Shown piece after piece: positions 1 to 45,883 of a stretch of DNA of 64,000 bases. Location of the stretch: positions 11,192-75,191 of the forward strand of contig CAYPBQ010000002.1 in assembly GCA_964409035.1 (NCBI GenBank). Direction: 5' to 3'. The position numbers and the translations under genes were made by a program. Within the stretch, counting starts at the first letter, position 1, and the number at the start of each line of letters is the position of its first letter. The notes beneath the pieces are model-generated. The model saw nothing but the letters and a program-made list of their open reading frames with translations. It was not told the DNA's origin and did not search any database. The stretch comes from an uncultured Candidatus Saccharibacteria bacterium. GTDB lineage: Bacteria; Patescibacteriota; Minisyncoccia; Phycocordibacterales; UBA12088.

Positions 1-1089
1 GGAGCAAGAATCTCTATTGGATCAGTAGAGCAGAGTATTAGAGGCATTAGACATAATCAGCATAGACCTGATGTCATTGTCTGTGACGACTTGGAAGATT
101 CAGAATCAGTTAAGACTCAAGAGAGCAGAGATAAATTATTTGAGTGGCTAACAGGTGATGTACTACCCGCTGGAGACAAGAATACTCGGATGATCTTCAT
201 AGGTACACCACTACATCAGGATTCTTTACTCATGCGACTTAAGGGTATCTTTAAAGATGGTGATCCAAAAAGTGTATTCAGACAGTACCCAATTGTTGAC
301 GAAAATAATATTCCGTTATGGTCTGGAAAGTTTCCCTACGAAGAAGATATAGAGATGGAGAAAGCTAAATGCTTTAATCTTTTAGCTTGGCAAAGAGAAT
401 ATCTACTCCAAATCGTTGAGAGAGAAGATCAAGTTATTCAGAGAGGATGGATACAGTACTATGATGTGCTTCCACCTGATAACTTCCACACATATAGAGC
501 TGTTGGTATTGATCTAGCCATATCACTTAAAGATAGTGCAGATTACACTGCTATGGTACCTGCCCTAGTTCAAGGGCGAGGGCAAAATTTGAGGATATAC
601 ATTTTACCTAATATTGTTAACAAAAGACTAACGTCTCTTGAAACCATTGAGCAAGCTAAAATGGTATCGTCTGTACTTAATAGGCCCAAACTATTTGTTG
701 AAACTAATGGATATCAAGCTTCAATAATAGAGCACCTCAAAAAGGAGAACTGTAATGTTGTAGGTGTACGTTCTGTGGGTGATAAATATGACAGATTAAG
801 TGCTGTTAGTTTTCTGATAGAGAGTGGTCAAGTATTGTTTCCTAAAACTGGAGTAGACCAACTCATTAATCAGTTAACTGGTTTTGGTTCAGAAAGACAC
901 GATGACTTAGCTGATGCTTTTTCGATACTACTTTCTAAAGTTATCGAGAACAGTCATAGATCGGTATCATTTGGAGTATTTCCACCTAGAGATGACAGTG
1001 ACCTCAATCATCTAAGTAGTAGAGAGAAGCATGCTATTGTGGAGAAAAGAAATGTCATACGAAATGCTCCAAGATGGGATGCGATTTAG
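1..1089 (+). CDS. Phage terminase large subunit (5'-partial; the ORF runs in from upstream of the window), nuclease-domain half
   Basis: Frame is open from nt 1 (..VIVCDDLEDSE.. Walker-B-like). RNaseH-like terminase nuclease motifs are present: VGIDLA, ETNGYQ, DDLADAF. Confidence 0.6.
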   Translation, partial: GARISIGSVEQSIRGIRHNQHRPDVIVCDDLEDSESVKTQESRDKLFEWLTGDVLPAGDKNTRMIFIGTPLHQDSLLMRLKGIFKDGDPKSVFRQYPIVDENNIPLWSGKFPYEEDIEMEKAKCFNLLAWQREYLLQIVEREDQVIQRGWIQYYDVLPPDNFHTYRAVGIDLAISLKDSADYTAMVPALVQGRGQNLRIYILPNIVNKRLTSLETIEQAKMVSSVLNRPKLFVETNGYQASIIEHLKKENCNVVGVRSVGDKYDRLSAVSFLIESGQVLFPKTGVDQLINQLTGFGSERHDDLADAFSILLSKVIENSHRSVSFGVFPPRDDSDLNHLSSREKHAIVEKRNVIRNAPRWDAI

Positions 1090-1968: not shown

Positions 1969-3306
1969 ATGGAAACACATATACAATCGCATATAAAACC
2001 AACAGGCTTAATAGGTAAAGAAGTAATTTTACCAACAGTAAAAATTAAGTACTGTTTATATGCTAGAAAATCAACTGAATCAGATGAAAGGCAAGCATTG
2101 AGTATTGATTCTCAAGTTAAAGAAATGCTCACTATCGCTGAAAGAGAAAATTTAGAAATAATTGATATTCGTCGTGAATCGCATTCGGCTAAGGATTCAG
2201 GGCAGAGACCTGTTTTTAAGGAACTTCTGGAAGACATTAGACGAAAGAGATTTAACGGAATTTTGACATGGGCTCCTGATAGATTGAGTCGTAATGCTGG
2301 AGATTTGGGGTCGCTTGTGGATTTAATGGATGAGAAACAACTACTTGAGATTCGCACATATGGACAACATTTTCACAACTCACCAAATGAAAAGTTTTTG
2401 TTAATGATTTTGTGTTCACAAGCTAAACTGGAAAACGACAACAAGAGTATAAATGTAAAAAGAGGTTTAAAAACTAGAGTTGAAATGGGACTTTGGCCAT
2501 CTGTCGCTCCCACAGGATATTTAAATAGTAAAAATGTAGGAGAGAAAGGAGTTATCTATATTGATCCACAGAGAGCACCTATTATCAGAAAAATGTTTGA
2601 AAAAGTGGCATATGAAAAGTGGAGTGGAAGAAAAATATACAATTGGCTCAAATTTGATTTGAATCTTAAGACGGCTAGTGGAAATAAAAACCTGACGCTA
2701 AGTAATGTATACATGATTCTACAAAACCATTTCTATTATGGAACATATGAATATCCTAAAGAGTCTGGTAACTGGTATAGAGGGAAACACGAACCTCTAA
2801 TTACTAAAGAATTATTTGACCAAGTGCAAGAGCAGATAAAGAGATCTGTTATTAGAGTAGAGAATAAAGAATTTGCATTTACTAAACTAATGATTTGTGG
2901 ACTATGTTCTTCTGGTATCACCCCAGATGAGAAGTTTAAAAAACAAAAAGACGGTAGTGTTCACAGACATGTTTATTATGGTTGTAATGGGTCTAAAGAT
3001 AGAGATTGCAAAGGTGGGTATATAAATGAAATTGATTTGATAAAACAGTTTGAAGAATTAATGGAAACTATCAACATAGATGAGATTGGGATAAAAGAGA
3101 AAATCAAAAATGAGGTTCAGAGATTTAAGAAATTTAATCAAATAGTTCTCAATTCAAAAGACAAGATTGAAGTTGGAGATATTGATATACGGAATTACTG
3201 CAAATACATCTTGAGAAACGGAACTGATGGAGAGAAAAGAGAGTTGTTGGGGTGTTTAAAGGGTAAGATTACTTTAAATAATAAGGTCATTTCTCTCTAT
3301 GTTTAA
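1969..3306 (+). CDS. Large serine recombinase (resolvase/invertase N-domain, recombinase domain and C-terminal Zn-ribbon)
   Basis: YARKSTESDERQALSIDSQ catalytic Ser region, DRLSRN motif, and a C-terminal Cys cluster (CGLCSS..YYGCNG). Confidence 0.8.
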   Translation: METHIQSHIKPTGLIGKEVILPTVKIKYCLYARKSTESDERQALSIDSQVKEMLTIAERENLEIIDIRRESHSAKDSGQRPVFKELLEDIRRKRFNGILTWAPDRLSRNAGDLGSLVDLMDEKQLLEIRTYGQHFHNSPNEKFLLMILCSQAKLENDNKSINVKRGLKTRVEMGLWPSVAPTGYLNSKNVGEKGVIYIDPQRAPIIRKMFEKVAYEKWSGRKIYNWLKFDLNLKTASGNKNLTLSNVYMILQNHFYYGTYEYPKESGNWYRGKHEPLITKELFDQVQEQIKRSVIRVENKEFAFTKLMICGLCSSGITPDEKFKKQKDGSVHRHVYYGCNGSKDRDCKGGYINEIDLIKQFEELMETINIDEIGIKEKIKNEVQRFKKFNQIVLNSKDKIEVGDIDIRNYCKYILRNGTDGEKRELLGCLKGKITLNNKVISLYV

Positions 3307-3631
3307 TATGCTCATACATGATAAACGCCATACGTTTGAAACCAGCATGAGCTTTTAAGATTTCCTGCTTAGTCGGCTCACGACCTAGGACATCAGCGAG
3401 AGCCTCCCTAGTAAGCTCCATAAGATCATCCTCGTTTTGAGGAAGCGACTCTCTTACTACACCACATCCTTTTTTACAAATATATTTACCATTATCCTCA
3501 CCGTAACCCCTCTCTATTTTATGCCAGCCGTCAGGATGAGTGCAACAGGCATCGCACACAGTTATATGATTTTCATCATATATATACTGCCTCGTCCCAT
3601 TACATTTTTTACACACTCCTAGTTTTGCCAT
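3287..3631 (-). CDS. Small Cys-rich (Zn-ribbon-like) hypothetical protein
   Basis: CKKC...CDACC...CKKGC motifs. Convergent with the recombinase gene. Confidence 0.4.
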   Translation of the reverse strand: MAKLGVCKKCNGTRQYIYDENHITVCDACCTHPDGWHKIERGYGEDNGKYICKKGCGVVRESLPQNEDDLMELTREALADVLGREPTKQEILKAHAGFKRMAFIMYEHIKHREK

Positions 3632-3652
3632 ATTGTTTTGAATTTTCTTTGA

Positions 3653-4810
3653 TTATTGTAACAAACCCTTTAGTTTATTTTTTACAATCACAAAAGGATC
3701 TTTTTCAGAATCAAGTAACGAGTCTCCTCTTTTAAAATCGCTAGTTAATGGATTAATAGGTGTACCATTTTCAAACATAGCGTATTGGAGATGAGGACCT
3801 GTTGAGATGCCTGTTGAGCCAACATACCCTATAATATCTCCCTGATTGACACTCACTCCATTTTTAACACCCTTGGCTATGCTTGAGAGATGAGCATACT
3901 GCGTAAGATAACCTCCATGTTTTAATTCTACAGTAATACCCAAACCTCCTTTTGAACCAGCAGTTGTAACTTTACCATCAGCAGTAGCGATCACAGGAGT
4001 TCCTGTATTTGCAGCATAATCAATCGCCCTGTGTGCAGTAACTTGTTTAGTTACTGGATTCACGCGACTGTAGCTGTAACCTGAACTGATTTGAGCATAA
4101 CTAAGGGGTGATTTAAGAAATTGACGAGCCAGAGATTCTCCATTTTCATTATAAAATTTATCGTTATAACGAAATGCCGTATATGTTTTGCCGTCGTTCG
4201 TAAACTTTGCTCCTAAGACTTTTCCAGCCCCAGCTGGTTTTCCATCAAGTGTTCGCCTTTCATAGACTAGAGAAAATGAATCGCCCTCTCGTATATCAGT
4301 AGCAAAATCAATATCGCTTGAAAAGATACTAGCGAGTTCCATAGTGGCCTTATCTTCAACTCCTGTGTTTTGAGCTGTGAGAAACAATGAGTCTGCAATA
4401 ATTCCTTTTGCAGTAACTACTTTGATATCATATTCAATAGGTTTAGCGACCACTTCAAAAGCATTCTCTTTTTTTTCAACTACAACAACCTCATCGCTTG
4501 AAAGTGGATATTCGATTGAAGCAAGTGCTTTCTTCACGAAGATTAATTTAAGAACCTTTCCGGTTTGAATTTTTGTAAAATCAAACACATCTTTTGAAGA
4601 ACTAAGAATAGTCAGGGCTTGGTCGTATGATACGTCAAAAGACCCTAAAACCTTCGTAAACGTATCACCTGACTGTATTTCATACTCTACAACCTCTCTA
4701 TTTGCTATTTGTTGTGTAGAAATGTCTTGATTTATGTCATTTTTTGATCCAACGAAGGGGGCGGCTACAAGGATAATGCCTCCGATGACCAAGGAAATTA
4801 TTTTCTCCAT
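3653..4810 (-). CDS. M23 family metallopeptidase (LytM-like) with an N-terminal signal/TM
   Basis: C-terminal HRAIDYA...GSTGISTGPHLQYAM signature of M23 peptidases. Confidence 0.75.
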   Translation of the reverse strand: MEKIISLVIGGIILVAAPFVGSKNDINQDISTQQIANREVVEYEIQSGDTFTKVLGSFDVSYDQALTILSSSKDVFDFTKIQTGKVLKLIFVKKALASIEYPLSSDEVVVVEKKENAFEVVAKPIEYDIKVVTAKGIIADSLFLTAQNTGVEDKATMELASIFSSDIDFATDIREGDSFSLVYERRTLDGKPAGAGKVLGAKFTNDGKTYTAFRYNDKFYNENGESLARQFLKSPLSYAQISSGYSYSRVNPVTKQVTAHRAIDYAANTGTPVIATADGKVTTAGSKGGLGITVELKHGGYLTQYAHLSSIAKGVKNGVSVNQGDIIGYVGSTGISTGPHLQYAMFENGTPINPLTSDFKRGDSLLDSEKDPFVIVKNKLKGLLQ

Positions 4811-5026
4811 GAACCACTCATCTTAGCAGAAATAGGTCACTTTTTCAACCCAAAAACGAGCCTTATTTTAGGGGCTATAATGATAAATAATTTAATCACC
4901 AAGAAAAAACAAAGGAGCTGTAAAAGCCCTTTTTGCCGTTTTTTTGCCCTTATCGCGAGCTTTGCACAAGGATTAACCTTTTAGCCTCTTGCCTAGTTGG
5001 ACGAGCCGTTAGACGATTCTTTTAGA

Positions 5027-5353
5027 TTAGCCAAAAATTAAAACTTTATCTGAACTCTCCACCATTTTGAGTAAGTCGGGCATCGTGAAAACTGGACATA
5101 CACTACTTTCTTCCTTCCCACGAACTTTAAGACAACTACCACAAGCATAAATCTCGCCTTTTAATTCTTTGAACTCCGACATTTTCTTTGAAATATCAAA
5201 ATCTTTAGTATCGGGAATGGTATATAATTCTGACCCCTCGCTCATTAAAAAGATTTCTACTTGATGTCCAGCTTTAAGCGAAGTAATTCCAAGACGAAAT
5301 GTATTCCATATATGCTCTGGTTTATTTGATTGTAAAATCATTCCTAGTTTCAT
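5027..5353 (-). CDS. DsrE/DsrF-like family protein
   Basis: About 108 aa with a DsrE-like fold signature and a conserved Cys (YACGSC). Confidence 0.45.
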   Translation of the reverse strand: MKLGMILQSNKPEHIWNTFRLGITSLKAGHQVEIFLMSEGSELYTIPDTKDFDISKKMSEFKELKGEIYACGSCLKVRGKEESSVCPVFTMPDLLKMVESSDKVLIFG

Positions 5354-5359
5354 AATAGT

Positions 5360-5602
5360 TTAACTTAAATCTTTCTTCTTTTCTTCAAACTCTTTCTTAT
5401 CAATTTCGCCCTTGGCATATCTTTCTTTCAAAATATCTAATGCGTTTTTACTACCATCCACTCCATTGGTTTTACTATTACGAACAAGCCAGACAATGAA
5501 ATAAATGATTGCTCCCCAAAATAAAAGCATCATAATTCCACCTCCAAACCAGCCCATCATATTGCCCCAACCTCCAAAACCATTATATATTCCATACATC
5601 AT
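5360..5602 (-). CDS. SHOCT-domain small membrane protein
   Basis: Gly/Met-rich TM segment followed by a C-terminal [27 protein letters not shown] motif. Confidence 0.55.
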
Positions 5603-5731
5603 AGTTTTTATAGTTAATACTAATAATTTTTATTCTTACAACATTTTACCATAAAATAAATCTTCCATTGGAATACCTAACGCTTTGATGAGTTCAATTT
5701 TTTTGGCTGCAAAGATGATTGTTTTTTCATA

Positions 5732-6130
5732 CTAATTAAAATTTACTGCGAAATTATACATTCCCATCGAGCATACGCCCTGAACTTTCTCACCGGATTT
5801 TGGATTACCTAAGTCAATTATTTCCTCTCCTGTAGGCTGTAAGACTTTTTGGAATCCAGCTGAACGAATGGCGAGCGATGCAGAGCAATCGTAGGTGCCG
5901 TCGGTTTTTACCACTAACTTAGTTGGCATTCCTCCCTTAAGTTGGGTAGTGCGCGGAGAATAACCGCCCTTTGCCGTTATAGTCACATACTGCACACCGT
6001 CTCTAATCTCAACATTCTGAGATTGCGTAACTTCACCACCCGAGGATGCCGATCTGTCAGAGACAAAGTAAAGAGTCCCACCGATAAGGACGACACTGAC
6101 GATAATGGATATGATTGTGTTTTTTTGCAT
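5732..6130 (-). CDS. Cupredoxin-like domain protein (membrane-anchored, putative copper-binding)
   Basis: TM anchor. Cupredoxin_1-like C-terminus with Cys..Met ligand pattern (GVCSMGMYNF). Adjacent to copA. Confidence 0.5.
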   Translation of the reverse strand: MQKNTIISIIVSVVLIGGTLYFVSDRSASSGGEVTQSQNVEIRDGVQYVTITAKGGYSPRTTQLKGGMPTKLVVKTDGTYDCSASLAIRSAGFQKVLQPTGEEIIDLGNPKSGEKVQGVCSMGMYNFAVNFN

Positions 6131-6145
6131 AGATTAATTAATAAA

Positions 6146-7153
6146 TTATATGTTAAATAAGGGATCGATGATACCGAGCCCCGCGAGACCTGCGAGAAGC
6201 GCAAAAGCTCCAAGTCCAATCACCACAACTCCTGCGGATTTAAAAAAGAGTGGAGCGTGCTTTGATTGTGCGAATGAAGCCGAACCGAACGACAGGAGTG
6301 CAAGCACCGGAAGTGTGCCGAGAGCGAATGCAGTCATAATGAGAAGCCCTGAGAGAAACGAACCGCTTGAAAGTGCCGCAACCTGCATCGCCTGAGTAAA
6401 CCCACAAGGCAGAAAAAATGTACCGACACCCACGAGAAATGGAGCTATTGTCTTGTGCTCCACTTTACGAAAGAAGCTGAAAAAGCCGGAGGGCAAAGTG
6501 ACCACATTCTTCTGAAAGACCCCCACCAGATTAAGTCCCAACACAATCATCACAACAGAAGCAACGATTCCAAGTATTGCAGTGAATGTAAAACTTATTC
6601 CAATCGCGCTTCCGATAGCACCGAGAACACCGCCAAGCACCGCAAAACTTATTAACCGTCCTCCGTGGAAAAGCATCATCGGTTTTACATCACTTATTTT
6701 GTCTTGAGATACTGTTGCAGAAAGAGAAAGAACAAGCCCTCCAACAACCGCAAGACAGCTTGAGACGGACGCAACAAGGCCAATGATAAAGCTGGTGATT
6801 GGCGTGACTGTTCCACCAAGACCGAAATTTAGTATTCCTGATTTCTGGACGATAAAAAACAAAGCTATAAATGCAAGACCAATCGGCAATGCCTGCCAAA
6901 TGACCCCGTTATCTTTCTTCTCTCCAGCCTGCTTCTCAACAGAAAGAGAATAGCCATTGTGTTTTATTTTTTCAGTTAATATCTCTGCGAGTTTGTGCTG
7001 ACTCTCATCGAGGACAGTGTCGATTGACACAATTTCGCGCTTCAAATCGACATTGGCATGACTAATACCAATCTGCTCATTCAGAGTGTCTTCAATCAAG
7101 ATTTTACATGATGCACAGTGGGTGCCGGTGACATGTAATGTGAGTGTTTTCAT
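6146..7153 (-). CDS. HMA (heavy-metal-associated) domain fused to a DsbD/CcdA-like polytopic membrane domain
   Basis: N-terminal GTHCASC metal-binding motif. Multi-TM region with single Cys residues in separate helices (SSCLAV, LPCGFTQ). Confidence 0.6.
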   Translation of the reverse strand: MKTLTLHVTGTHCASCKILIEDTLNEQIGISHANVDLKREIVSIDTVLDESQHKLAEILTEKIKHNGYSLSVEKQAGEKKDNGVIWQALPIGLAFIALFFIVQKSGILNFGLGGTVTPITSFIIGLVASVSSCLAVVGGLVLSLSATVSQDKISDVKPMMLFHGGRLISFAVLGGVLGAIGSAIGISFTFTAILGIVASVVMIVLGLNLVGVFQKNVVTLPSGFFSFFRKVEHKTIAPFLVGVGTFFLPCGFTQAMQVAALSSGSFLSGLLIMTAFALGTLPVLALLSFGSASFAQSKHAPLFFKSAGVVVIGLGAFALLAGLAGLGIIDPLFNI

Positions 7154-7156
7154 AAA

Positions 7157-9457
7157 TTATAGTTTCGTATTCTTAAGCCGAAGCGAGTTCGTGACGACCG
7201 TGACGCTCTCAAATGCCATAATCGCTCCTGCAACGGCTGGGCTTAAGGTCCAACCAAAAAACGGAAAGAGGACACCGGCCGCGACAGGAATGCCGACCGA
7301 GTTATAGCCGAACGACCAAATCAAGTTTTGCCATATTGTTCGGTTGGTTTTTTTCGCAAGATTTACAGCTTCAGCCACTTTGCCGATGTCACCTTTAAGG
7401 AGCACGATATCGGAACTTTCAATGGCAATGTCCGAACCATCGCTCATCGAGATTGCTACATCAGCCTGTGCAAGTGCCGGAGAATCATTGACCCCGTCAC
7501 CGATCATGGCGACCTTAATGCCTTTCTTTTGCAGATCGCCAATAATCTTAAGTTTGTCCTCCGGTTTTACATCAGTGTATACTTCATCAATACCAAGACT
7601 TTTAGCGACCGCTTCTCCCGTCTTTTTGTGATCACCAGTTGCCATGATCACCTTGAGTCCAAGTCGTTTGAGCTTTTCAATTTCTACTTTCGCTTCTGCT
7701 TTGATAGTGTCGTGAATTTTTATGAGCGACATCACTTCTTTATCGTTTGAGAGATACAGCTCACGACCGCTCTCGAAGCGTCCATCATGGAAGTCTTTGC
7801 GTATCTGCTTTTCAGACTGGCCTATCGTTTCTCCGATATAATCGATTGATCCGAGGTAATAAGTCGCGCCATCGTATGTAGCCTTAAGACCTTTGCCGGG
7901 CAGTTCCGTAATATCGGAAACTTTAACCTCTTTTGCTTTTGTTTCTTTGAGCCATGTAGCAACGCTTGCCGAGACCGGATGCTTTGATGACTTTGTCATC
8001 GAGTAAATAAGAGACTGTTTGAAATTGGTATCGTCGATATCGCACACGTGGTTCTCGTCCTTGCAGAATATGCCCTCAATCGAAAGCTTGTTTTCAGTAA
8101 GTGTTCCAGTCTTGTCGAAGACGATCGCCGTTACCTTTGCAAGCTTTTCAAGACTCTCTGCATTCTTGATGAGGATGCCGCGACGTGCGCCTGTACCCAC
8201 ACCGGTAATAATGGCCGTAGGAGTAGCGAGACCAAGCGAACACGGACAAGCGATAACGAGCACGGCCATAGTTGTGGAGAGTGCGAAAGCAAACGCTTTG
8301 GCCATACCAAATGTTCCGGGCGCAAAAATCATCCACGAGGCAAAGGTGATCACGGCAATCACGAGCACGATATAAACAAAATAGCCAGAAATCCTATCAG
8401 CAATTTTTTCAATTGGAGCCTTTGAATTTTGAGCATTCTCCACAATGGTGATGATATGTGCAAGCGCCGTATCTTTGGTGTCTTTCAGAACCTCCACCTT
8501 AAGCAATCCTTGAAAATTCTGGGTCCCTGCAAAAACCACTTCTCCCGAAATCTTATCGACCGGCACCGATTCTCCTGTCAGATTGGATTCATCGATGCTC
8601 GATGATCCGAATACAATCTTGCCATCGACCGGAATACGCTCATTCGGTTTGACGATCACGACATCACCGACCTCGACTTTCTCAATAGGAATCTCAATCT
8701 CTTTTCCGTCACGCTCAACCAGAGCCGTTTTGCTGGTAAGTTCAGCCAGTTTTTGAAGCGATTCGTTCGTCTTTCTTTTTGCTCTGGCTTCAAGAAATTG
8801 TCCGAGAGCGATGAGACCGATGACGATAATGACAACATCATAAAAATTTGACCCGACGTCCAAAAAATTAGAAAGAGGCTTTTCAAAGGCGGTTACTGCA
8901 AACGAATATATAAATGCAACGATCGTTGATATACCGACAAGCACGTCCATATTCGCAATGCCGGTTCGGAGGAATATCCACGTTGCCTTAATATACCTCC
9001 GGCCGATACCAAACAGGACGAATGTCGCAAAGATCGGCATGAGATGATGGAAGCCCTCGTATATCGTCTCTGGCATCTCCGGAATAATATTATTGCTGGA
9101 TAGAACGTCCCAAAACATCATGATGAAAGAAAAAATGACCATCGGGATGACAAATTTCATCTCAAGAGCCATTGATTTCTCCTTTGTGTCGCCTCCGCCG
9201 TGATCCATACGAGCATGATCCATTCCCGCCATCTCTTTCTTGGCTGTATCCTCAAACGTGTAGCCGAATGGTGAAATTGCGCTGTTGAGAGACTCGACAG
9301 GAACCGGTGCTCCAGAGAAAGTCACCTTTGCGTTTTCTTGGGTAAGTCCGACTGATACCGACTCGACGCCGGGAATTTTTGCAACCTTGTTTTGAATGAG
9401 CGAGACACAGCTCGCACAGTGCATTCCTTTTACTTTGTATATGTTTGATGTCGCCAT
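7157..9457 (-). CDS. copA: Copper-translocating P1B-type ATPase
   Basis: HMA motif GMHCASC, CPC transmembrane motif (CPCSLGLATP), DKTGTLT phosphorylation site and GDGVNDSPAL. Confidence 0.95.
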   Translation of the reverse strand: MATSNIYKVKGMHCASCVSLIQNKVAKIPGVESVSVGLTQENAKVTFSGAPVPVESLNSAISPFGYTFEDTAKKEMAGMDHARMDHGGGDTKEKSMALEMKFVIPMVIFSFIMMFWDVLSSNNIIPEMPETIYEGFHHLMPIFATFVLFGIGRRYIKATWIFLRTGIANMDVLVGISTIVAFIYSFAVTAFEKPLSNFLDVGSNFYDVVIIVIGLIALGQFLEARAKRKTNESLQKLAELTSKTALVERDGKEIEIPIEKVEVGDVVIVKPNERIPVDGKIVFGSSSIDESNLTGESVPVDKISGEVVFAGTQNFQGLLKVEVLKDTKDTALAHIITIVENAQNSKAPIEKIADRISGYFVYIVLVIAVITFASWMIFAPGTFGMAKAFAFALSTTMAVLVIACPCSLGLATPTAIITGVGTGARRGILIKNAESLEKLAKVTAIVFDKTGTLTENKLSIEGIFCKDENHVCDIDDTNFKQSLIYSMTKSSKHPVSASVATWLKETKAKEVKVSDITELPGKGLKATYDGATYYLGSIDYIGETIGQSEKQIRKDFHDGRFESGRELYLSNDKEVMSLIKIHDTIKAEAKVEIEKLKRLGLKVIMATGDHKKTGEAVAKSLGIDEVYTDVKPEDKLKIIGDLQKKGIKVAMIGDGVNDSPALAQADVAISMSDGSDIAIESSDIVLLKGDIGKVAEAVNLAKKTNRTIWQNLIWSFGYNSVGIPVAAGVLFPFFGWTLSPAVAGAIMAFESVTVVTNSLRLKNTKL

Positions 9458-9458
9458 A

Positions 9459-9734
9459 TTATTTTCTTTTTAGCTTATAAACCTTAAGCACCTCGTCCCG
9501 TGCTTTTTGTGATTGACCAGATGACATCTGGTGGTGCACACAATGATCGAGATGATTCTCAAGCAGGAGATCTTCAACATTCGAAAGCCCCTGCTTTACC
9601 GCAGAAGTTTGCGTGATAACGTCAACGCAGTAAGTGTCACTTTCGACCATCTTTTGAAGTCCTCTGACTTGCCCCTCTAAGAGTTTGAGGCGGCGAATGA
9701 CTTTCGCCTTACTTTTTTCATCCATGTATTTCAT
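9459..9734 (-). CDS. csoR: CsoR/RcnR-family metal-sensing transcriptional repressor
   Basis: 91 aa, DUF156-like helix bundle with conserved Cys/His (YCVDV...HLDHC). Immediately upstream of copA. Confidence 0.8.
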   Translation of the reverse strand: MKYMDEKSKAKVIRRLKLLEGQVRGLQKMVESDTYCVDVITQTSAVKQGLSNVEDLLLENHLDHCVHHQMSSGQSQKARDEVLKVYKLKRK

Positions 9735-9754
9735 ATGGACGTAGTATATACCCC

Positions 9755-10249
9755 CTAGGGGGTATTGTCAAAACAGAATGTGGATAGTTTTTTATTCTGG
9801 AAACGAGAAATAATGTACGAGCTCACGAGGATGGATACGATGGCAATTACCACACTACCCAGAACATCTATCGGATGATGCACTTTTGCAAGAACGCTTC
9901 CAATACCCACTATCATAGCTAAAGTACCTAAGAGAATTCCCATCTTCTTATGAAGTATAAAGATAATTCCTGCGATCAGTATTGCAAAAAGCGTATGCTC
10001 CGATGGAAAACCATTGTCTGCCACATGAGGAACAAGAGGAGAGATATTCTCAACCACAAAAGGTCTTGGACTGTAGACAATTGCGTTTAATGCCTTATCG
10101 ATCACTAATGCTACAATCGAGGACAATAATGCAAGTATGAGTATAGGTTTTCTATCCGCATATAACTTACTAACCAAAAAGACGATAGCAATCACTGCTA
10201 TCACTATGTAGAGATACTGAACGGAGAAAAAAACCAATTGATTGAACAT
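9755..10249 (-). CDS. PAP2 superfamily phosphatase (membrane)
   Basis: PAP2 motifs: KALN..SPRP, GFPSEHT, HHPIDV. Confidence 0.7.
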   Translation of the reverse strand: MFNQLVFFSVQYLYIVIAVIAIVFLVSKLYADRKPILILALLSSIVALVIDKALNAIVYSPRPFVVENISPLVPHVADNGFPSEHTLFAILIAGIIFILHKKMGILLGTLAMIVGIGSVLAKVHHPIDVLGSVVIAIVSILVSSYIISRFQNKKLSTFCFDNTP

Positions 10250-10254
10250 CTGGC

Positions 10255-10440
10255 TTACTTATCCTTCCAGGATTTTTTCAAGTCCTTCCAGAATCTCTTG
10301 TGAATTTCTATGGTGTCAGCAAGGTGCTTTTCGGCCAGATGCTTCACGTCACCACCAGCTTCTTCTATTATTTCTTGATGGATTCTAATTTCTTCTTGAG
10401 CGTGATCCTTTAATGCTTGTATCGCTTTTTTTAGATTCAT
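10255..10440 (-). CDS. Small hypothetical protein (61 aa, charged, helical)
   Basis: ORF only. Sits inside the operon-like array. Confidence 0.3.
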   Translation of the reverse strand: MNLKKAIQALKDHAQEEIRIHQEIIEEAGGDVKHLAEKHLADTIEIHKRFWKDLKKSWKDK

Positions 10441-10506
10441 ATAATTTTTATTAATTTGTAATGATTGTGGTCGGCTGTTTTCTAGGATTTAAGATCATGT
10501 AATAAC

Positions 10507-11130
10507 TTATTTATACCAGTTGGTATACCAATCCTGCATCTGCTGTATTTCCTCTGACTGTGATTTGATAATATTCTTTGCAAGTTGTTGCATCTCTGGT
10601 CTACCAGTACCGGATTCAAGCATTCGCGCCATCATAATGGCCATCTGATGATGAGGAATCATCTGCTCAATAAATTCCTTGTCAAAATCAGATGCGTTTT
10701 TTAGAACTTCAATGTCTTGAGTACTGCCCATATGCATACCGCCCTGCGACATCATTCCACCCATCCCTAGGTTCGCACCGCTTGGAACGCTTTTCCCAAA
10801 CCAATCCTGATACCATGCGCGCATTTCCTGATTTTCTGCAGTCTGAGCTTTGAGGATCGCCTGAGCCAATGTTTTAATCTCCGGACGAGTTGCTTTCTCC
10901 AAAGCCAGATTTGCCATGGCGATTGCTCCGTCATGGTGCGGGATCATTTGCTCGATGAAATGCTGATCAATAGAACTCGCAATTCCTTTACGTGCACTCG
11001 GATTTTGGCCATAGTTCCAAGACATCATTCCTCCATACCTCATAATGGGAGTAAAAAGTGTGGCAAGAATGAGCCCGATCACAATTCCTCCTATCCCGTA
11101 TATTATTTTGTTGTTTTGATTGTTGTTCAT
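10507..11130 (-). CDS. DUF305 domain protein (tandem repeat), copper-resistance associated
   Basis: Two copies of the FIEQMIPHH(D/Q)xAIxMA motif. Confidence 0.75.
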   Translation of the reverse strand: MNNNQNNKIIYGIGGIVIGLILATLFTPIMRYGGMMSWNYGQNPSARKGIASSIDQHFIEQMIPHHDGAIAMANLALEKATRPEIKTLAQAILKAQTAENQEMRAWYQDWFGKSVPSGANLGMGGMMSQGGMHMGSTQDIEVLKNASDFDKEFIEQMIPHHQMAIMMARMLESGTGRPEMQQLAKNIIKSQSEEIQQMQDWYTNWYK

Positions 11131-11140
11131 AGTGTTTTAG

Positions 11141-11341
11141 TTAATTATTTGAATTTGTAATTAATGTGCTTGTTGCTGATGGTTCTTGTACTGTTTTCCT
11201 AGAGCCGTTCCTATTGTCCCGAGTGATATATGCATAACTAAAAAGTAGAACAGCGAAAATTATTGTTATTGCGAGTTTCTTTGGTTCTATCTTTTCAGAA
11301 TGGTTGTGCATAATATCTTTAATCTTTAAGTGCCTCATCAA
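11141..11341 (-). CDS. Small membrane protein, hypothetical
   Basis: ORF with one TM segment. Confidence 0.25.
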   Translation of the reverse strand: MMRHLKIKDIMHNHSEKIEPKKLAITIIFAVLLFSYAYITRDNRNGSRKTVQEPSATSTLITNSNN

Positions 11342-11972
11342 TCAGTTTCTTGAAGGGTTCATATCCTTGTGGATTTTCAATTTTTTTACCGTTAAGGAAA
11401 AATGATGGAGTTCCTTGGAGATTGAGACTTACAGCTTCTTTATAACTATCGTCCACACGCTTTTTCACCTCATCACTAGTGACATCTTTTTTCCATTGCT
11501 CGATATTTACACCAGCTTCAATTGCATACTTTTCAAACTGATTTTGGTTTGTGAATTGACCTTCACCCCACTCCTTTTGTTTATTGAAAAGCACATCATG
11601 CATTTCCCAAAACTTTCCTTGTTTTCCTGCCGCTTCAACTGCATAAGCCGCCGTTTTAGAATTTTTGTGTCCTGGTAAAGGAAAATAACGAACCACAAAA
11701 AGAATAGATTCTTTGTACTCATCCTTTATCTGTCTAATCAAAGGATAGTACGCTCCACATGCTTCACATTCAAAATCAAGGTATTCAACAAGAACAACCT
11801 TTGCTGTAGTACTTCCGATAGCCCAATCATTTCCTTTGATTTCCAGTGTAGAAGCCTGAGTAGTATTAGTATTTTCAATTTTATCTTCTGATTTTTTGTA
11901 ACTTCCTTTTGCCATAAAGAATACTATGACAATAAGAACAACAATACCGATAATAACTTTAAGATGTTTCAT
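11319..11972 (-). CDS. DsbA-like thiol:disulfide oxidoreductase (thioredoxin fold, membrane-anchored)
   Basis: CEAC active site in a DsbA-like context. N-terminal TM. Confidence 0.75.
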   Translation of the reverse strand: MKHLKVIIGIVVLIVIVFFMAKGSYKKSEDKIENTNTTQASTLEIKGNDWAIGSTTAKVVLVEYLDFECEACGAYYPLIRQIKDEYKESILFVVRYFPLPGHKNSKTAAYAVEAAGKQGKFWEMHDVLFNKQKEWGEGQFTNQNQFEKYAIEAGVNIEQWKKDVTSDEVKKRVDDSYKEAVSLNLQGTPSFFLNGKKIENPQGYEPFKKLIDEALKD

Positions 11973-12429
11973 ATTTATCTTTATTTAGACTAATAAATGC
12001 AAGAACTGTAATAACTGCGAATGAGACGAGTCCCATAAACGGAATGGTTATAAAACCAAACCATTCAAAAAACTTGGTTGTGCATGATATTCCAAGTGTA
12101 CATGGAGCAATACTTTCAGGAAGTACTTTCCAATAAAGTAGATTGTGATAGATAGAAATTATAAAACCAGGAATTGCTAGAGCAAGAACGGAAATATAAA
12201 GTTTTCTATCGCCTCGCATAATACCAATAGCAGTAAGAATAACTATCGGATACATTGCAATACGCTGATACCAACAGAGAACGCACGGAGGTAAATTCAT
12301 TACCTCACTGAAAAACAGACTTCCTGCCATAGCTATACCTGCTTGTAGCAATATGCCATAATGAAGTGTTTCAACATAAATTTTGTTAATAATTTTTTGC
12401 ATAGTTTTAATTTTAGATTTTACAAACAA
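11959..12429 (-). CDS. Disulfide bond formation protein B (DsbB/BdbC family)
   Basis: CVLCWYQR motif in TM1 and a second Cys pair (CTLGISC). Confidence 0.75.
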   Translation of the reverse strand: MFVKSKIKTMQKIINKIYVETLHYGILLQAGIAMAGSLFFSEVMNLPPCVLCWYQRIAMYPIVILTAIGIMRGDRKLYISVLALAIPGFIISIYHNLLYWKVLPESIAPCTLGISCTTKFFEWFGFITIPFMGLVSFAVITVLAFISLNKDKYETS

Positions 12430-12952
12430 GAGGGTCTACTATTTTTTTAGCAGTTAGATAGATTGCAACTACAAGAAGTAAGACCCCTATAATTCCAAAT
12501 TCACTACCTCCAAGTGGAAGAAGTGCCAAAACACTTCCAGTACCGAAAAAAGTTAAACTAGTCAGAAGAAATGATCCACAAGCAGCACATCCGACTCCCA
12601 AGAGTCCGCTTAGAGCACCTAGAAATCCAGTAGCCACCCCACTTTGCCCAACTTCTTTGATTCTACGTTTCAGAAAGTATGTCATCATCGAAATGTACAC
12701 TCCAAATAAAATAGAAATCAAGATAGTGTAAGAAGCAGAAAACAAAGTGAAGTTAGTAGTGATAGAACCCAAGAGACTAAATGGTAATTCAATTTTAGTT
12801 GCAAGAGGTACATCTCCCGAAGTGACCAAACTTACGATTAAGTTAATGTTTGGCAGCCATACCGCAAACGCAAAAGCTACAATGCCTACAACTATTGTAA
12901 GAACTACATATACCACTTTTTGATATACCTCTTGTAAGGCTCGAATTAACAT
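12413..12952 (-). CDS. Polytopic membrane protein with a vicinal Cys motif (GVGCAACG), function unknown
   Basis: Four or more TM helices. CAAC lies in a helix. Sandwiched between dsbB and dsbA. Confidence 0.45.
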   Translation of the reverse strand: MLIRALQEVYQKVVYVVLTIVVGIVAFAFAVWLPNINLIVSLVTSGDVPLATKIELPFSLLGSITTNFTLFSASYTILISILFGVYISMMTYFLKRRIKEVGQSGVATGFLGALSGLLGVGCAACGSFLLTSLTFFGTGSVLALLPLGGSEFGIIGVLLLVVAIYLTAKKIVDPLVCKI

Positions 12953-12961
12953 ATTTTTCTG

Positions 12962-13696
12962 CTATTTATTTTGAAGTGCGAGATCAATTAGTTGCTTAAC
13001 AGATGCCAGAGGTTGAGAGCCTGAAAGTGGATATTTCTTTCCTTTTGGACCGACAACAATACTCCATGGGGTGCCTTGTCCACCAGTTGCTACTGCATTT
13101 TGAACATGCTCTTCAATTTTTTGTGCATACTTTCCACTTGTAAGACATTCGTTGAATTTATTTTTATCTAGACCAACATATTCCGCAATTTTTGGAAGCT
13201 CTGCTGGATCAAGACCATTGTTTGCAGGAGTAATTTCCATAAGACGATCTAGGTATGCCCAGAATTTATCGTTACCACCGAGTTCAGCGGCACATTCAGT
13301 TGCCTCAGCCTCTTTACGAGCTTTTGAGTGAAGTTGATCAAGTGGAAAGTGCCGATAGACCCACGCAACCTTGCCGTTCTTTCCATATTCATCCATGACC
13401 TGTTGCATAGTTGGATGGAATCTTTTACAGAAAGGACACTCTGTATCCGAGTATTCAACTATTTTTACTGGTGCATTTATATCGCCCCTAATATGATCTT
13501 CTGATGTCACAGGAATCATTTTATCCAAGTCACCAGTTTCTTGTACTATTGCTTGTCCTTGAGTATTTACTGCATTACTACTAGGGGTTTTACCGCTACT
13601 ATATGCTACAGCCCAAGCAATAAGGGCTCCTGCAATAACAATAGCAATTGGTATCGCTAGATTATTTTTTTGAATTATTTGTGTGGGTTCTTCCAT
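12962..13696 (-). CDS. DsbA-like thiol:disulfide oxidoreductase (second copy)
   Basis: CPFC active site in a thioredoxin-fold context. N-terminal TM. Confidence 0.75.
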   Translation of the reverse strand: MEEPTQIIQKNNLAIPIAIVIAGALIAWAVAYSSGKTPSSNAVNTQGQAIVQETGDLDKMIPVTSEDHIRGDINAPVKIVEYSDTECPFCKRFHPTMQQVMDEYGKNGKVAWVYRHFPLDQLHSKARKEAEATECAAELGGNDKFWAYLDRLMEITPANNGLDPAELPKIAEYVGLDKNKFNECLTSGKYAQKIEEHVQNAVATGGQGTPWSIVVGPKGKKYPLSGSQPLASVKQLIDLALQNK

Positions 13697-13761
13697 AGAG
13701 ACATAAAATTAAATTAATAAAACCACCATCAAAAAATTGAGGGTGTATTTAATTAATGCCA

Positions 13762-14178
13762 CTAGAAAAGTTTGGGGTTCAGAATACCTTGAGAAAAAGC
13801 TTCTTGAAGATAGTCAGATACTGAAATATTCCTTGAGTAAAAACGGTTTATCCCCAGTTCTAGTCGTGAAAAATTCTCTAGAGAAAGTTTATTAAAATAT
13901 TTTAATCCAAGTAAAGCCAGTAGGGTTAGAAGTATGGAAAGAATTATCGACAAGATGTCTTTTGAAGGAAGTGTAGTAAACATACTTTGCCACTCTTCTA
14001 GATGCTCCAGTGGGTTCATGCTACATATAGACATTGAATGACCAGAGAATGGACATCTTGTCATTGTCCCGCCTATATCCATACCAACCTGTGATATGCC
14101 GAAAACTGCAACTAAGATAAAGATAGTGGCTATAAACGAAAAAATATTTTTGACTACCGTGCTTTTGAGAATAAACAT
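13762..14178 (-). CDS. Membrane protein with a Cys cluster (CPFSGH..C..C), hypothetical
   Basis: TM helices plus the Cys-rich loop. No recognisable family. Confidence 0.35.
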   Translation of the reverse strand: MFILKSTVVKNIFSFIATIFILVAVFGISQVGMDIGGTMTRCPFSGHSMSICSMNPLEHLEEWQSMFTTLPSKDILSIILSILLTLLALLGLKYFNKLSLENFSRLELGINRFYSRNISVSDYLQEAFSQGILNPKLF

Positions 14179-14368
14179 GAATAAAGTATATCAGATTTTA
14201 TTCAACAAAAAAATCACCTATCCAGGCGATTTTTTTGTCTTGAATACTGCTCTCAGCAGGTATGCGACGACGGAATAGATGGCTTATGCGGTTTCTCCGT
14301 CCTAGACGGGTCGCTCTTTACTTCATCAAAATATCATTATTTTGACGCGTCTTGAGCGTCGCACGAGC

Positions 14369-14442
14369 TGGCTGCCGGACTTGGACTCGAACCAAGATAC
14401 ACGCCTCCAGAGGGCGTAGTCCTACCATTAGACGATCCGGCA
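14369..14442 (-). tRNA. tRNA-Gln (anticodon CUG), CCA encoded
   Basis: Manual cloverleaf: acceptor TGCCGGA/TCCGGCA, anticodon stem ACGCC/GGCGT, loop CTCTGGA, T-loop TTCGAGT. Confidence 0.7.
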
Positions 14443-14546
14443 AAGATATGCGTAATAACCCAGATACGCAACATACGCTATTTGCGCACATGGACTATAG
14501 CATATTGCTCATGTGGTCGCATCCCACACCAAAACGTGAAGATACC

Positions 14547-15074
14547 CTAAAAGAGGTAGTGGTATACAAATGAGGTGATGATATCTGCCTCAGGTCCACG
14601 CGTTATTATGGCCCCAAGCGCGCCGGTTATCACCAAAGAAATAAATCCAATAGCAGCAACTACCGGCGCAAACCATCCATCAGTCATATGAAGCGCGAGG
14701 GCATACTTGATGTCGTATATTTTTTTGAAAAGAATCCATCTACTAATCACAAATAGCTTAAATGCGGTTCCGTGAGAAAGTCTGAGCGCATACGCACTAG
14801 CAAGAATCGCAAATATAAGAAAGGTGATAATGGCAAACGCTTCGTGTGTTTCTATCACCTCATGAATAACCTCTTGCTCACCAAGCATTTCCTCTGCGTA
14901 CATTCCAAAAAGGATGGTAGGAAGCGTAGTGATAGCGCCAAATATAACTAACACACCCTTTATCAGCACCAGCTTTTCGTGTCTTCGAAAAAAGATATAG
15001 CTAGCGCACTCAATAAGTGCATACAGTGAGAGAAGCGCTATTGGAAAGTGGACTAGAAGTGGATGAAGGTTCAT
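14547..15074 (-). CDS. DUF2231-like membrane protein
   Basis: N-terminal LHPLLVHFPIAL motif. Polytopic. Confidence 0.45.
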   Translation of the reverse strand: MNLHPLLVHFPIALLSLYALIECASYIFFRRHEKLVLIKGVLVIFGAITTLPTILFGMYAEEMLGEQEVIHEVIETHEAFAIITFLIFAILASAYALRLSHGTAFKLFVISRWILFKKIYDIKYALALHMTDGWFAPVVAAIGFISLVITGALGAIITRGPEADIITSFVYHYLF

Positions 15075-15081
15075 ACGAACA

Positions 15082-16764: not shown

Positions 16765-16769
16765 AACTA

Positions 16770-17756
16770 TCAGACATTGAGGTAGCGCTTAACCGCTAGG
16801 TAACTTGAAACCGCGCCAAGCATAATACCTGCACCCACCAAAATGAGGAACAAGACACCGAAGTTGTGCGTGTAGTATTGGAATAGGTCTATCGTTGAAT
16901 CAAAGTACTCACGAGTCTTTGGACCAAGCGCAAGTGCGATTGGATAAAAGAGGATGAGTGTAAGTAGTCCAGCAAACGCACCGTACATAATACCCTGAAA
17001 TACAAATGGCCCACGGATATACTGATTAGACGCACCAACAAGACGCATCACAGTTATCTCATCGCGTGCGGTGTATATCGCAAGGCGGATAGTGGTAAAG
17101 GTAATAAGGATAGAGGCGATAACCAATACCACAGTAACTGCAAGACCTAATGCTTCTGCGCTCTTGATGATGTCAGAGAGGCGGTCTATGGCAACTTTGT
17201 TTTTGAAATAATTCACCTCATCAATGATAGGAGTACCGTCTTTTGATAGCGCGTTGGTGTCGTCAGAGAGAAATTCTGCAATACCCTCATACTGAGAGGG
17301 TTCTTTAGCCTTAATTGAAAGAGCTGCTCCAAGAGGGTTATCCCCTAATTCTTCAAGTGCCTGAAGCATAAGCTGATCATTTGCGTGGCGCTCTTTAAAG
17401 CGCGTGAGTGCATCCTCGCTTGAGATATATTCGACTCGCTCTACCTGTGGCAAGCCTTCTATTTGTCGTTGAATAGTTTGTATGTCTTCAGTTGATGCAT
17501 TTACTGTGAAGTACACATTTATATCCACCTTGTCTCTGAATATCTGAAGCGCGGTGCTAAGCATTGCGTTTACAAATATGAGAGAGCCTATCACAAACAG
17601 TGTGACAGTCATTACCAAAATAGCAGCAAGTGATACAAAGCTATTGCGCCAAAAGCCGACAAAGCCTGCCTGTATTATTCTTTTTGTATTTATCCAAAGC
17701 ATGTGTGTGTTATAGAGAATACTTACCCTCCTTATCATCACGAACCACTCTTCCAT
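16770..17756 (-). CDS. ftsX: Cell-division ABC transporter permease FtsX
   Basis: FtsX topology: N-terminal TM, periplasmic loop and three C-terminal TMs. Downstream of ftsE. Confidence 0.85.
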   Translation of the reverse strand: MEEWFVMIRRVSILYNTHMLWINTKRIIQAGFVGFWRNSFVSLAAILVMTVTLFVIGSLIFVNAMLSTALQIFRDKVDINVYFTVNASTEDIQTIQRQIEGLPQVERVEYISSEDALTRFKERHANDQLMLQALEELGDNPLGAALSIKAKEPSQYEGIAEFLSDDTNALSKDGTPIIDEVNYFKNKVAIDRLSDIIKSAEALGLAVTVVLVIASILITFTTIRLAIYTARDEITVMRLVGASNQYIRGPFVFQGIMYGAFAGLLTLILFYPIALALGPKTREYFDSTIDLFQYYTHNFGVLFLILVGAGIMLGAVSSYLAVKRYLNV

Positions 17757-18390: not shown

Positions 18391-18440
18391 GGATAAATTG
18401 ACAATTGATGTACATGCCCTTGTTAGAGTATGTACTGATT

Positions 18441-45879: not shown

Positions 45880-45883
45880 ATAT

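Follow-up and report, generated by a model that had tools for sequence, protein, structure and literature searches.

A probable mosaic copper-resistance island with envelope-thiol modules downstream of tRNA-Gln in a Patescibacteria genome

We analyzed a 64,000-nucleotide (nt) stretch, here called the window, of contig CAYPBQ010000002.1 from an uncultured Candidatus Saccharibacteria bacterium, and within it a block of copper-handling and thiol-disulfide genes on the minus strand at positions 5027-14178. The block holds 15 open reading frames (ORFs) with about 330 nt of spacer DNA in total, and three gene pairs overlap. This agrees with a first-pass annotation, made from the sequence alone, which had described a tight, co-directional block of about fifteen genes, and each domain that it named was recovered by Pfam. 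Briefly, domains were called with Pfam and NCBIfam, phage-type genes with PHROG and RNA elements with Rfam; all readings of the block given below are computational predictions. The minus strand is common to all genes from 3287 to 19331, including the housekeeping genes pyrG, ftsX, ftsE and prfB, so co-directionality alone says nothing about whether the block is a single system.

The copper core (5732-9771) is headed by a sigma-70-type promoter combined with a CsoR operator (9743..9771). The promoter is near consensus (TTGACA-17-TATACT, 9771..9743, 11/12 matches), and a perfect 18-bp palindrome, ATACCCCCTAGGGGGTAT, lies at 9748-9765 between its -35 and -10 hexamers, some 13 nt before the start codon of csoR. 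It is followed by the genes for a CsoR Cu(I)-sensing repressor (9459..9734; PF02583, E=6.8e-25), a probable CopA P1B-type Cu(I) ATPase (7157..9457), a membrane protein carrying an HMA and a DsbD_2 domain (HMA-DsbD_2, 6146..7153; Pfam DsbD_2 E=3.5e-30, HMA E=1.6e-8) and a Cupredoxin_1 protein of 132 amino acids (aa) with an N-terminal signal anchor (5732..6130). CsoR has the Trns_repr_metal fold, and its Cu(I) ligands, read from the translation, are C36, H61 and C65. CopA has one HMA domain and the CPC, YN and DKTGT motifs; its sixth transmembrane (TM) helix reads M-A-F-E-S, compared with the P1B-1 signature MxxSS. The promoter/operator arrangement before csoR was kept in 60/65 related loci. 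Direct CsoR control is predicted from the operator for csoR, copA, the HMA-DsbD_2 gene and the cupredoxin gene. It perhaps extends to the two low-GC genes at the end of the block, which encode a SHOCT-domain membrane protein (5360..5602; Pfam) and a DsrE-like small thiol protein with a CGSC motif (5027..5353; Pfam E=1e-8). A DsrE-like gene lies inside the copper operon in locus L123, and in the window a terminator-like site is found at 4929..4915.

The first-pass annotation had called the HMA-DsbD fusion unusual and proposed a check of its phyletic distribution. We ran this check and found the fusion to be widespread. A word-indexed search gave more than 6,600 matches, the best 120 of which were all 84-100% identical with both domains in each. 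At E<=1e-30, 448 cluster representatives (50% identity) were recovered, and relatives occurred in at least 545 species-representative genomes, almost all labelled Patescibacteria, Parcubacteria or Paceibacterota. We counted neighbours by tblastn in the 80 best loci carrying HMA-DsbD_2 relatives. Homologues of the cupredoxin were present in 77/80 loci, of CopA in 73/80 and of CsoR in 67/80, followed by DUF305 (24/80), the serine recombinase (17/80), the terminase (8/80), the Dsb genes (4-5/80) and PAP2 (0/80). The neighbours of the cassette varied between loci, and the flanking tRNAs included those for Gln, Ser, Asn, Thr, Gly, Arg, Ala and Leu. csoR-copA-HMA/DsbD_2-cupredoxin is thus a conserved four-gene cassette found in many genomic contexts.

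Two types of CopA were found in these cassettes, with an identity to the window CopA of about 45% for the majority and of 74-86% at six loci, against 70-90% for CsoR and the fusion. This suggests gene replacement within the cassette and mosaic exchange. Where pyrG and ftsX lay on the same locus, they were 52-67% and 40-51% identical to the window genes, respectively, compared with 70-88% for the fusion. The better conservation of the fusion fits horizontal spread, and we conclude that the copper core is a self-contained, horizontally spreading cassette.

The 132-aa cupredoxin contains no histidine, which rules out its identity as a blue-copper protein. Among proteins of solved structure it came closest to Streptococcus pneumoniae CupA (E=2.6e-4), followed by the metal-binding domain of CopA (E=3.7e-3), and the alignment sets Cys82 and C120-S-M122-G-M124 of the window protein on the CupA Cu(I) ligands. 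The family profile matched CupA at E=2e-16; C82, C120, M122, G123 and M124 were invariant in 196 family members; and the modelled cupredoxin domain of a homologue aligned with 4f2e at a Foldseek TM-score of 0.85. As judged from these residues and matches, the protein is a CupA-type Cu(I)-site protein, which the first-pass annotation had missed. Also missed was that it is the obligate partner of HMA-DsbD_2. Among the top 150 HMA-DsbD_2 cluster representatives, 53 were at least 420 aa long, and the precomputed Pfam strings of 120 relatives showed HMA, DsbD_2 and Cupredoxin_1 in a single chain, so the two window genes represent the split form of one protein.

HMA-DsbD_2 is laid out as the HMA domain, one linker TM helix and a six-TM core with C133 and P249-C250. 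In 137 cluster representatives, the HMA CxxC (C13xxC16) was conserved at 96% and both C133 and P249-C250 at 100%. We predicted the structure of a triple-fusion HMA-DsbD_2-cupredoxin homologue with AlphaFold2 (predicted local distance difference test score (pLDDT) 79, predicted template-modelling score 0.68); the model has seven TM helices between the HMA and cupredoxin domains, and both Cys-bearing helices are broken. Across the family, the numbers of Lys and Arg residues were 2.8, 2.9, 5.0 and 2.9 in the N-linker and even loops and 1.0, 0.2, 0.1 and 0.3 in the odd loops and C-tail, giving sums of 13.6 for inside and 1.7 for outside loops. This bias, together with the seven TM helices, places the HMA domain in the cytoplasm and the C-terminus with the fused cupredoxin outside. 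The CupA-like domain is therefore predicted to face outward, and the N-terminal signal anchor of the stand-alone window protein (TM peak at residues 5-23) is consistent with the same outer side.

We suggest that HMA-DsbD_2 serves as a copper conduit. It is possible, if doubtful, that it is instead a CcdA-like electron conduit, in which reductant sent outward keeps the cysteines of the CupA-like or DsbA-like proteins reduced, for Cu(I) binding or Cu(II) reduction. Pfam assigns the TM domain to DsbD_2, and the core has six TM helices and two invariant Cys in pseudo-symmetric halves, both in helices broken in the AlphaFold2 model and one in a P-C motif. CcdA and DsbD likewise have their Cys in broken helices, one of them in P-C. 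CupA is described as reducing Cu(II) via its cysteines in vitro in a source that cites this from earlier work (PMC7558416, citing PMC5646241), and a copper-induced system includes ScsB, which transports reductant in the manner of DsbD (PMC10907172). Against an electron conduit, the external partner has a full Cu(I) ligand set (Cys2 and Met2), and solved CcdA was matched neither in the sequence-profile search (E<=1) nor among the top 50 Foldseek hits. HMA domains bind Cu(I) and, to our knowledge, are not known as electron donors. CcdA receives its electrons directly from thioredoxin and requires no fused domain.

Other CsoR-headed operons of the candidate phyla radiation (CPR) encoded HMBD-MauE (L093 7711-9293) or SHOCT-YHS-DUF2933-HMBD-ATPase (L091 9310-12543). 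The fusion of a cytoplasmic metal-binding domain to a membrane thiol/redox protein seems to be a recurring theme in CPR bacteria.

Upstream of the copper core, nine genes of a low-GC module occupy 9755-14178, with a promoter-like site of their own at 14224..14195. The first encodes h138, a 138-aa, two-TM Cys protein (13762..14178) without a Pfam match, whose family has a conserved NCPF-GHSM-IC-M-NP-EH motif (Cys/His/Met) between the two membrane helices. It is followed by a DsbA-like thioredoxin-fold protein with a CPFC active site and an N-terminal membrane anchor (12962..13696; Pfam), and by CAAC179, a 179-aa membrane protein with a GCAACG motif (12413..12952). Next are a DsbB of the BdbC type with CVLC and a second Cys pair (11959..12429; PRK03113, 117 bits against a cut-off of 124) and a membrane-anchored DsbA/BdbD-like oxidoreductase with a CEAC active site (11319..11972; Pfam). 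The module ends with the 66-aa conserved ORF h66 (11141..11341), a membrane-anchored DUF305/CopM-family metallochaperone with two repeats (10507..11130; E=2.5e-45; NF049983, 114 bits against a cut-off of 90), the 61-aa conserved coiled-coil protein h61 (10255..10440) and a PAP2 phosphatase (9755..10249), which is undecaprenyl-diphosphate phosphatase-like and scored under the curated NCBIfam cut-off. Like h138 and CAAC179, h66 and h61 gave no Pfam match. The earlier count of two DsbA/DsbB pairs did not hold: only one pair is present (11319-11972 with 11959-12429), with a CxxC in the thioredoxin fold and a CxxC and second Cys pair in DsbB. The other DsbA-like protein has no DsbB and is paired with CAAC179. 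Both DsbA-like proteins matched actinobacterial DsbA and BdbD, and ScsC structures more weakly (E=3e-8 to 4e-4, superfamily level).

At least 900 homologues of CAAC179 were recovered, none of which has a name or a Pfam domain. Its invariant residues are G121-C122-A-A-C125-G126 and the C-terminal C177. The AlphaFold2 model was too poor for a fold search (mean pLDDT 60). MerC was considered and rejected as an identity, since hhalign gave a probability of 20% with 18 columns aligned around GCAAC and there was no Pfam MerC match; the GCAAC motif is common to both, a likeness at the motif level only. We retrieved 80 metagenome loci via CAAC179, and in all 62 that were assessable for the upstream gene (62/62), a DsbA-like gene ended no more than 120 nt upstream. 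We regard CAAC179 as the putative partner of this DsbA-like protein in the membrane. On haloarchaeal plasmids, too, CAAC179 homologues come after a thioredoxin-domain gene, and in one case the two genes overlap by 4 nt, so the DsbA-like/CAAC179 pair spans bacteria and archaea. The overlapping example lies on the Halorussus halophilus plasmid NZ_CP044526.1 (L176 3997-5477), where the CAAC179 homologue has 37% identity.

Among the 26 CAAC179 loci with at least 5 kb of sequence downstream, 22 carried, in the 10 kb that follow, a gene for a CsoR-family protein or a CopA-like P-type ATPase, the P1B-type CPC motif being confirmed in only some of these ATPase matches. By our estimate, the chance expectation for one such locus per genome of about 1 Mb is a few percent, roughly 2%. 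The link between copper and envelope thiol-disulfide genes that the first-pass annotation had proposed is therefore beyond chance. Three CAAC179 contexts picked solely by the length of their contigs (L089, L091 and L093) each had metal genes. L089 encodes a protein of about 140 aa, a DsbA-like protein, CAAC179, a second DsbA, a 61-aa protein, a P1B ATPase of the Zn/Cd type (P1B-2-type; CPC and ADTG motifs), PAP2 and M23. In L091 the module is followed by M23, DoxX, DUF305, CsoR, SHOCT, YHS and an HMBD-ATPase, and in L093 by CsoR and HMBD-MauE, amid Fic, RadC, ParB and restriction-modification genes.

The order module, h66/h61, Zn/Cd-type P1B ATPase (CPC, ADTG), PAP2 and M23 was seen in six loci (L089 9427-11376, L097, L102, L104, L138 and L140). 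Both h61 and h66 are kept in relatives, where h66 accompanies h61 and h61 adjoins the P1B ATPase. The window has h61-PAP2 without a Zn/Cd-type ATPase, which suggests that the ATPase was lost or replaced.

These counts bear on the possibility that the Dsb genes are ordinary oxidative-folding machinery that landed beside the copper operon by chance, at an integration hot spot after tRNA-Gln. The separate promoter and composition of the thiol module would fit such a juxtaposition, as would the rarity of Dsb modules near copper cassettes (5/80 within 10 kb) and the different insertions that the site after tRNA-Gln collects in different species. It is nevertheless improbable given the 22/26 loci with metal genes against the roughly 2% estimated, the occurrence of the module with three metal gene sets (P1B-2-type ATPase; HMBD-ATPase and YHS; HMBD-MauE) and the conserved Cys/His/Met motif of h138.

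We also considered the first-pass proposal that the fifteen genes form one copper-responsive polycistronic system coupling Cu(I) efflux to the repair of envelope cysteines. The tight spacing, the common strand, the recurrence of the thiol module beside metal genes and the continuity between PAP2 and csoR, where no terminator-like site was found, speak for it. However, the only CsoR operator and the strong promoter are internal to the block, immediately ahead of csoR. Neither h138 nor the DsbA-like gene, nor any other Dsb gene, has an operator in front of it, here or in the loci retrieved via the thiol module, in which operators were found only before csoR. The suggested search for CsoR operators was therefore borne out before csoR-copA, and no further operator was found in the 64-kb window. 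The suggested synteny comparison likewise gave a divided answer: the four-gene cassette is conserved, but in relatives the modules occur in different orders and mostly apart. With GC and GC3 (GC at third codon positions) 2-5 standard deviations (SD) apart between modules and neighbouring housekeeping genes on the same strand, a single system is distinctly improbable.

The Scs system is a well-studied, copper-induced precedent for linking copper to envelope thiols (PMC10907172, PMC8900818, PMC5524982). Membership of the window genes in it was rejected: there is no ScsB/C/D/A architecture, ScsC was matched at the DsbA-superfamily level only, and no operator was found upstream of the Dsb genes. 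The data support a real link between thiol and metal genes, as in Scs, in the form of a neighbourhood association between modules and not of one operon.

We next describe the flanks of the block. On its upstream side lies tRNA-Gln(CTG) (14369..14442, minus strand), which forms the island boundary; past it are DUF2231 and then pyrG, ftsX, ftsE and prfB. On the other flank are an M23 peptidase (3653..4810, minus strand), a 114-aa ORF, a large serine recombinase of the integrase type (1969..3306, plus strand; phrog_95, E=2e-64), a LOOT RNA, a DUF4352 protein and the 3' portion of the gene for a terminase large subunit (TerL; 1..1089, plus strand; phrog_38, E=5e-83). The first-pass annotation had placed a recombinase module next to the block, and a terminase fragment at 91-1089 and the serine recombinase at 1969-3306 are indeed there. 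The LOOT RNA (RF03000, 83 bits, gathering score 46) is at 1695-1807 on the minus strand, between the DUF4352 and serine recombinase genes. M23, PAP2 and the 61-aa and 66-aa ORFs accompany the thiol module in relatives, and the island therefore probably extends to 3653, beyond the block as first described, with M23 included.

Between tRNA-Gln and h138 we found an unannotated conserved element (14200..14368, minus strand), directly after which the island genes start. Across loci it is about 110-170 nt long and consists of a variable hairpin, a conserved CTATTCCG-N5-GCATACCTGC-TGAGA-GCAGTATTCA hairpin and an intrinsic terminator. It was present in the window and in L004, L011, L018, L019, L021, L022, L071, L095, L101, L112, L127, L138 and L151. 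Metal and thiol modules begin directly after it, and L096 retains only its 3' half, beside a Dsb module. In two loci, a UA pair of the conserved hairpin has become CG, a compensatory change; the variable hairpin appears to covary. Of its structure, RNAalifold returned just the short conserved hairpin and the terminator, the variable hairpin not being alignable by MAFFT, and there was no Rfam match even at E<=10. The element could be a small RNA or a recombination site.

To describe composition, we used 35 core ORFs as the baseline (GC 0.443 +/- 0.023, GC3 0.378 +/- 0.046). The Dsb genes, h66, SHOCT, DsrE, M23, the recombinase, DUF4352 and the terminase were 2-5 SD under the core in GC/GC3, whereas the copper core and DUF305 matched it (z -0.5 to +0.7). 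The first-pass annotation had called for a comparison of codon usage with the core; GC and GC3 mark the Dsb, SHOCT/DsrE and phage-like genes as atypical but not the copper core. On the extended contig, low GC continues for about 5 kb past the left edge of the window and stops ahead of two MgtE genes, which gives an island of about 19 kb. A second low-GC stretch at 42000-47000 (GC 0.32-0.34 compared with 0.44) contains four large minus-strand ORFs beside a tRNA-Ser (48142-48231) and may be another island.

Metagenome contig L095 is 97.8% identical to window positions 14443..9567, with homology beginning exactly at the tRNA-Gln 5' end. Upstream of tRNA-Gln it has no DUF2231-pyrG; it carries KefB-like exchanger, GIY-YIG, DUF305, META, holin-like and SWIB genes with a GC of 0.34-0.39. 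tRNA-Gln directly precedes the cassette or the element in eight loci (L008, L011, L018, L019, L022, L026, L068 and L078), and tRNA-Ser adjoins them in several others. In 11 loci, each from a different species, the cassette has a serine recombinase gene no more than 300 nt away, often with less than 20 nt between the convergent stop codons; the recombinases abutting the cassette in L014 and L020 are 94% identical to that of the window. A unit with the gene order serine recombinase-(DUF4352)-TerL-TerS-N6/N4 methylase was seen repeatedly, in eight species or more (for example, window 1-3306, L087 8336-13737, L005, L014, L022, L027, L061 and L068), and no structural genes (portal, capsid or tail) were detected near the unit with Pfam or PHROG. 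The copy at the window start runs on for about 5 kb outside the window. The unit looks like a conserved minimal mobile element, perhaps satellite-like, rather than a randomly decayed prophage, and it probably moves the cassette.

That the block is cargo of a functional prophage infecting CPR bacteria is very unlikely. In its favour are TerL, TerS, the serine recombinase of the integrase type, a DUF4352 protein resembling Sie and an M23 peptidase resembling endolysins, with the same neighbours in at least eight species, but no portal, capsid or tail gene was detected, the three ORFs past the methylase have no Pfam or PHROG match and are not conserved elsewhere, the phage-like stretch spans only about 6-8 kb before host-like MgtE genes and host GC resume, and neither IMG/VR nor GenBank phages held a relative of the cassette.

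Taken together, we consider it probable, with moderate confidence, that the block is a mosaic accessory copper-resistance island at a tRNA-linked hot spot downstream of tRNA-Gln in a Patescibacteria (CPR) genome, built of modules that recur with thiophilic-metal resistance genes. The tRNA, the integrase, the atypical composition and the variable presence are those of a tRNA-linked integrative island. The first-pass suggestion that the block is accessory and mobile is supported by the GC/GC3 mosaic, the adjacency to tRNA-Gln, the 97.8% copy elsewhere and the recombinase abutting the cassette in 11 species.

Several observations weigh against this view. Only 5/80 copper cassettes have a Dsb module within 10 kb, and transcripts of the upstream module may run on into csoR, as no terminator was found after PAP2. 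For the proposed relay, direction and cargo are deduced solely from conserved residues and predicted topology, and streptococcal CupA is cytoplasmic, opposite to the topology predicted here. Solved CcdA gave no match to the TM domain among sequence-profile hits at E<=1, nor did it appear in the 50 best Foldseek hits, where the cupredoxin domain dominated. The tRNA-Gln junction could be an assembly branch point: Logan contigs, from independent assemblies of two runs, break inside tRNA-Gln from both sides. In the NCBI record, pyrG and the island are on the same 189-kb contig. There were no attachment (att)-type direct repeats or partial tRNA copies in the window and eight loci, and the probable left end (L087 16400-17250) and the tRNA end had nothing in common beyond chance matches of at most 10 nt. 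Serine recombinases need only a 2-bp core, so the lack of att repeats is weak negative evidence. No empty site was found, as an exact look-up of the DUF2231 protein gave only 2-kb contigs ending inside the tRNA. A scan of IMG/VR for the cassette gave an HMA-fragment match only, GenBank phages gave no cassette match, and a plasmid search gave only distant proteins named TauE/SafE.

If the block is such an island, Cu(I) binding would release CsoR from the operator and turn on csoR, copA and the HMA-DsbD_2 and CupA-like genes, and CopA would export Cu(I), driven by ATP. HMA-DsbD_2 and the membrane-anchored, outward CupA-like protein would act as one unit; in other CPR lineages they form a single polypeptide. 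In this unit, a cysteine relay could lead from the cytoplasmic CxxC, via the two invariant Cys within the membrane, to the Cys2/Met2 site on the outside. Its cargo would be Cu(I), passed outward by ligand exchange, or, less likely, reducing equivalents only; with either cargo, copper would be kept on a chaperone outside the membrane and not on envelope thiols. The upstream low-GC module would be transcribed from its own promoter, as its consensus match suggests, without a CsoR operator. By analogy with Scs, it may supply envelope thiol-disulfide chemistry and external copper binding against metal-catalysed mis-oxidation, and SHOCT-DsrE would be a further small accessory pair. We put forward only tentatively the full combination of an ATP-independent thiolate relay (HMA-DsbD_2 with the outward CupA-like protein, of the Mer type in reverse) that loads an external chaperone, h138-DsbA-CAAC179 as a new membrane system, for redox or metal handling, that partners DsbA-like proteins, and the carriage of both on a compact integrase-terminase-methylase element without structural genes, which may be a vehicle of CPR bacteria resembling a phage satellite.

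Patescibacteria are tiny, mostly uncultured episymbionts with minimal genomes, and little is known of how they cope with metals and fold envelope proteins. The results reveal that hundreds of their species share a horizontally moving copper cassette with an operator nearly identical to the actinomycete one. Three parts stand out, namely the HMA-DsbD_2/outward CupA-like unit, the h138-DsbA-CAAC179 module and the integrase-terminase-methylase carrier. The HMA-DsbD_2/CupA-like pair is a candidate for new copper biochemistry, in which a known Cu(I) chaperone site has apparently moved outside the membrane; if the relay is real, it would be widespread in Patescibacteria. For DsbA-CAAC179-h138, the fixed gene order and metal neighbourhood give an unannotated family of at least 900 members a testable role. 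If that role is correct, the module would be a third solution beside DsbB and VKOR, common to bacteria and haloarchaea and dedicated to thiophilic-metal stress. These findings extend current models to a new lineage and new parts and overturn none.

As a CsoR/CopA-type copper-resistance island with accessories resembling Dsb proteins, the block is a variant of a known arrangement, and no similar one has been characterised in this lineage. Its operator is nearly identical to the streptomycete CsoR consensus: the biochemically validated CsoR operators of Streptomyces lividans are ATACCCCCTAGGGGTA and GTACCCCCTAGGGGTATAC, and ATACCCCCTAGGGGGTAT differs from the former, given for copZA, by one base of the G-tract (PMC3902906). 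With the CsoR-regulated copZA/copA operons of Bacillus subtilis, Mycobacterium tuberculosis and S. lividans, the cassette shares the C-H-C ligand set, an operator overlapping the promoter and a P1B Cu(I) ATPase downstream. In contrast to these operons, it has no free CopZ, carries the membrane HMA-DsbD_2 and CupA-like proteins instead, and moves between genomes of an uncultured phylum. Proteins with HMA and DsbD_2 (COG2836) also belong to the predicted CsoR meta-regulon of gut Firmicutes, but those proteins carry DUF2318 too, no cupredoxin partner is reported for them and their function is likewise predicted (PMC4938975).

S. pneumoniae CupA, which was believed to be limited to a few streptococci, is cytoplasmic and feeds a cupredoxin-type CopA domain (PMC7558416). 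The window protein shares with the CupA/CopA system (PDB 4f2e, 4f2f) the cupredoxin fold, the N-terminal membrane anchor and the location in a copA operon, and its Cys...Cys-x-Met-x-Met Cu(I) ligand set aligns with that of CupA residue for residue. However, its predicted orientation is outward, and it is partnered, and in relatives fused, with HMA-DsbD_2 rather than partnered with a cupredoxin-type CopA domain. CopA here has an ordinary HMA domain and the regulator is CsoR, not CopY; delivery from a cytoplasmic CupA to a cupredoxin-type CopA domain is thus not what the window genes predict. CcdA/DsbD transporters share the six-TM core with one essential Cys per half, one of them in a P-C motif, but HMA-DsbD_2 falls in the Pfam family DsbD_2, not DsbD, and has HMA fused in place of the thioredoxin-fold/Ig-fold periplasmic domains. 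The MerP-MerT-MerA(NmerA) relay likewise combines an HMA CxxC, membrane Cys and a further Cys site across the membrane, with the opposite polarity, as HMA is inside here, and outside the copper context seen here.

ScsABCD shares DsbA-like proteins beside copper-resistance genes and ties copper stress to the protection of envelope thiols, whereas no ScsA/B/C/D orthologues were identified in the window and the host is likely monoderm. Finally, copB-mco and copXL on Staphylococcus aureus plasmids and SCCmec (PMC6191537, PMC5947656) likewise spread by horizontal transfer, confer copper hyper-resistance under CsoR control and include a copper-binding protein outside the cytoplasm. Their gene set differs, and the vehicle here, in CPR bacteria, is a serine-recombinase/terminase unit adjacent to tRNA genes.

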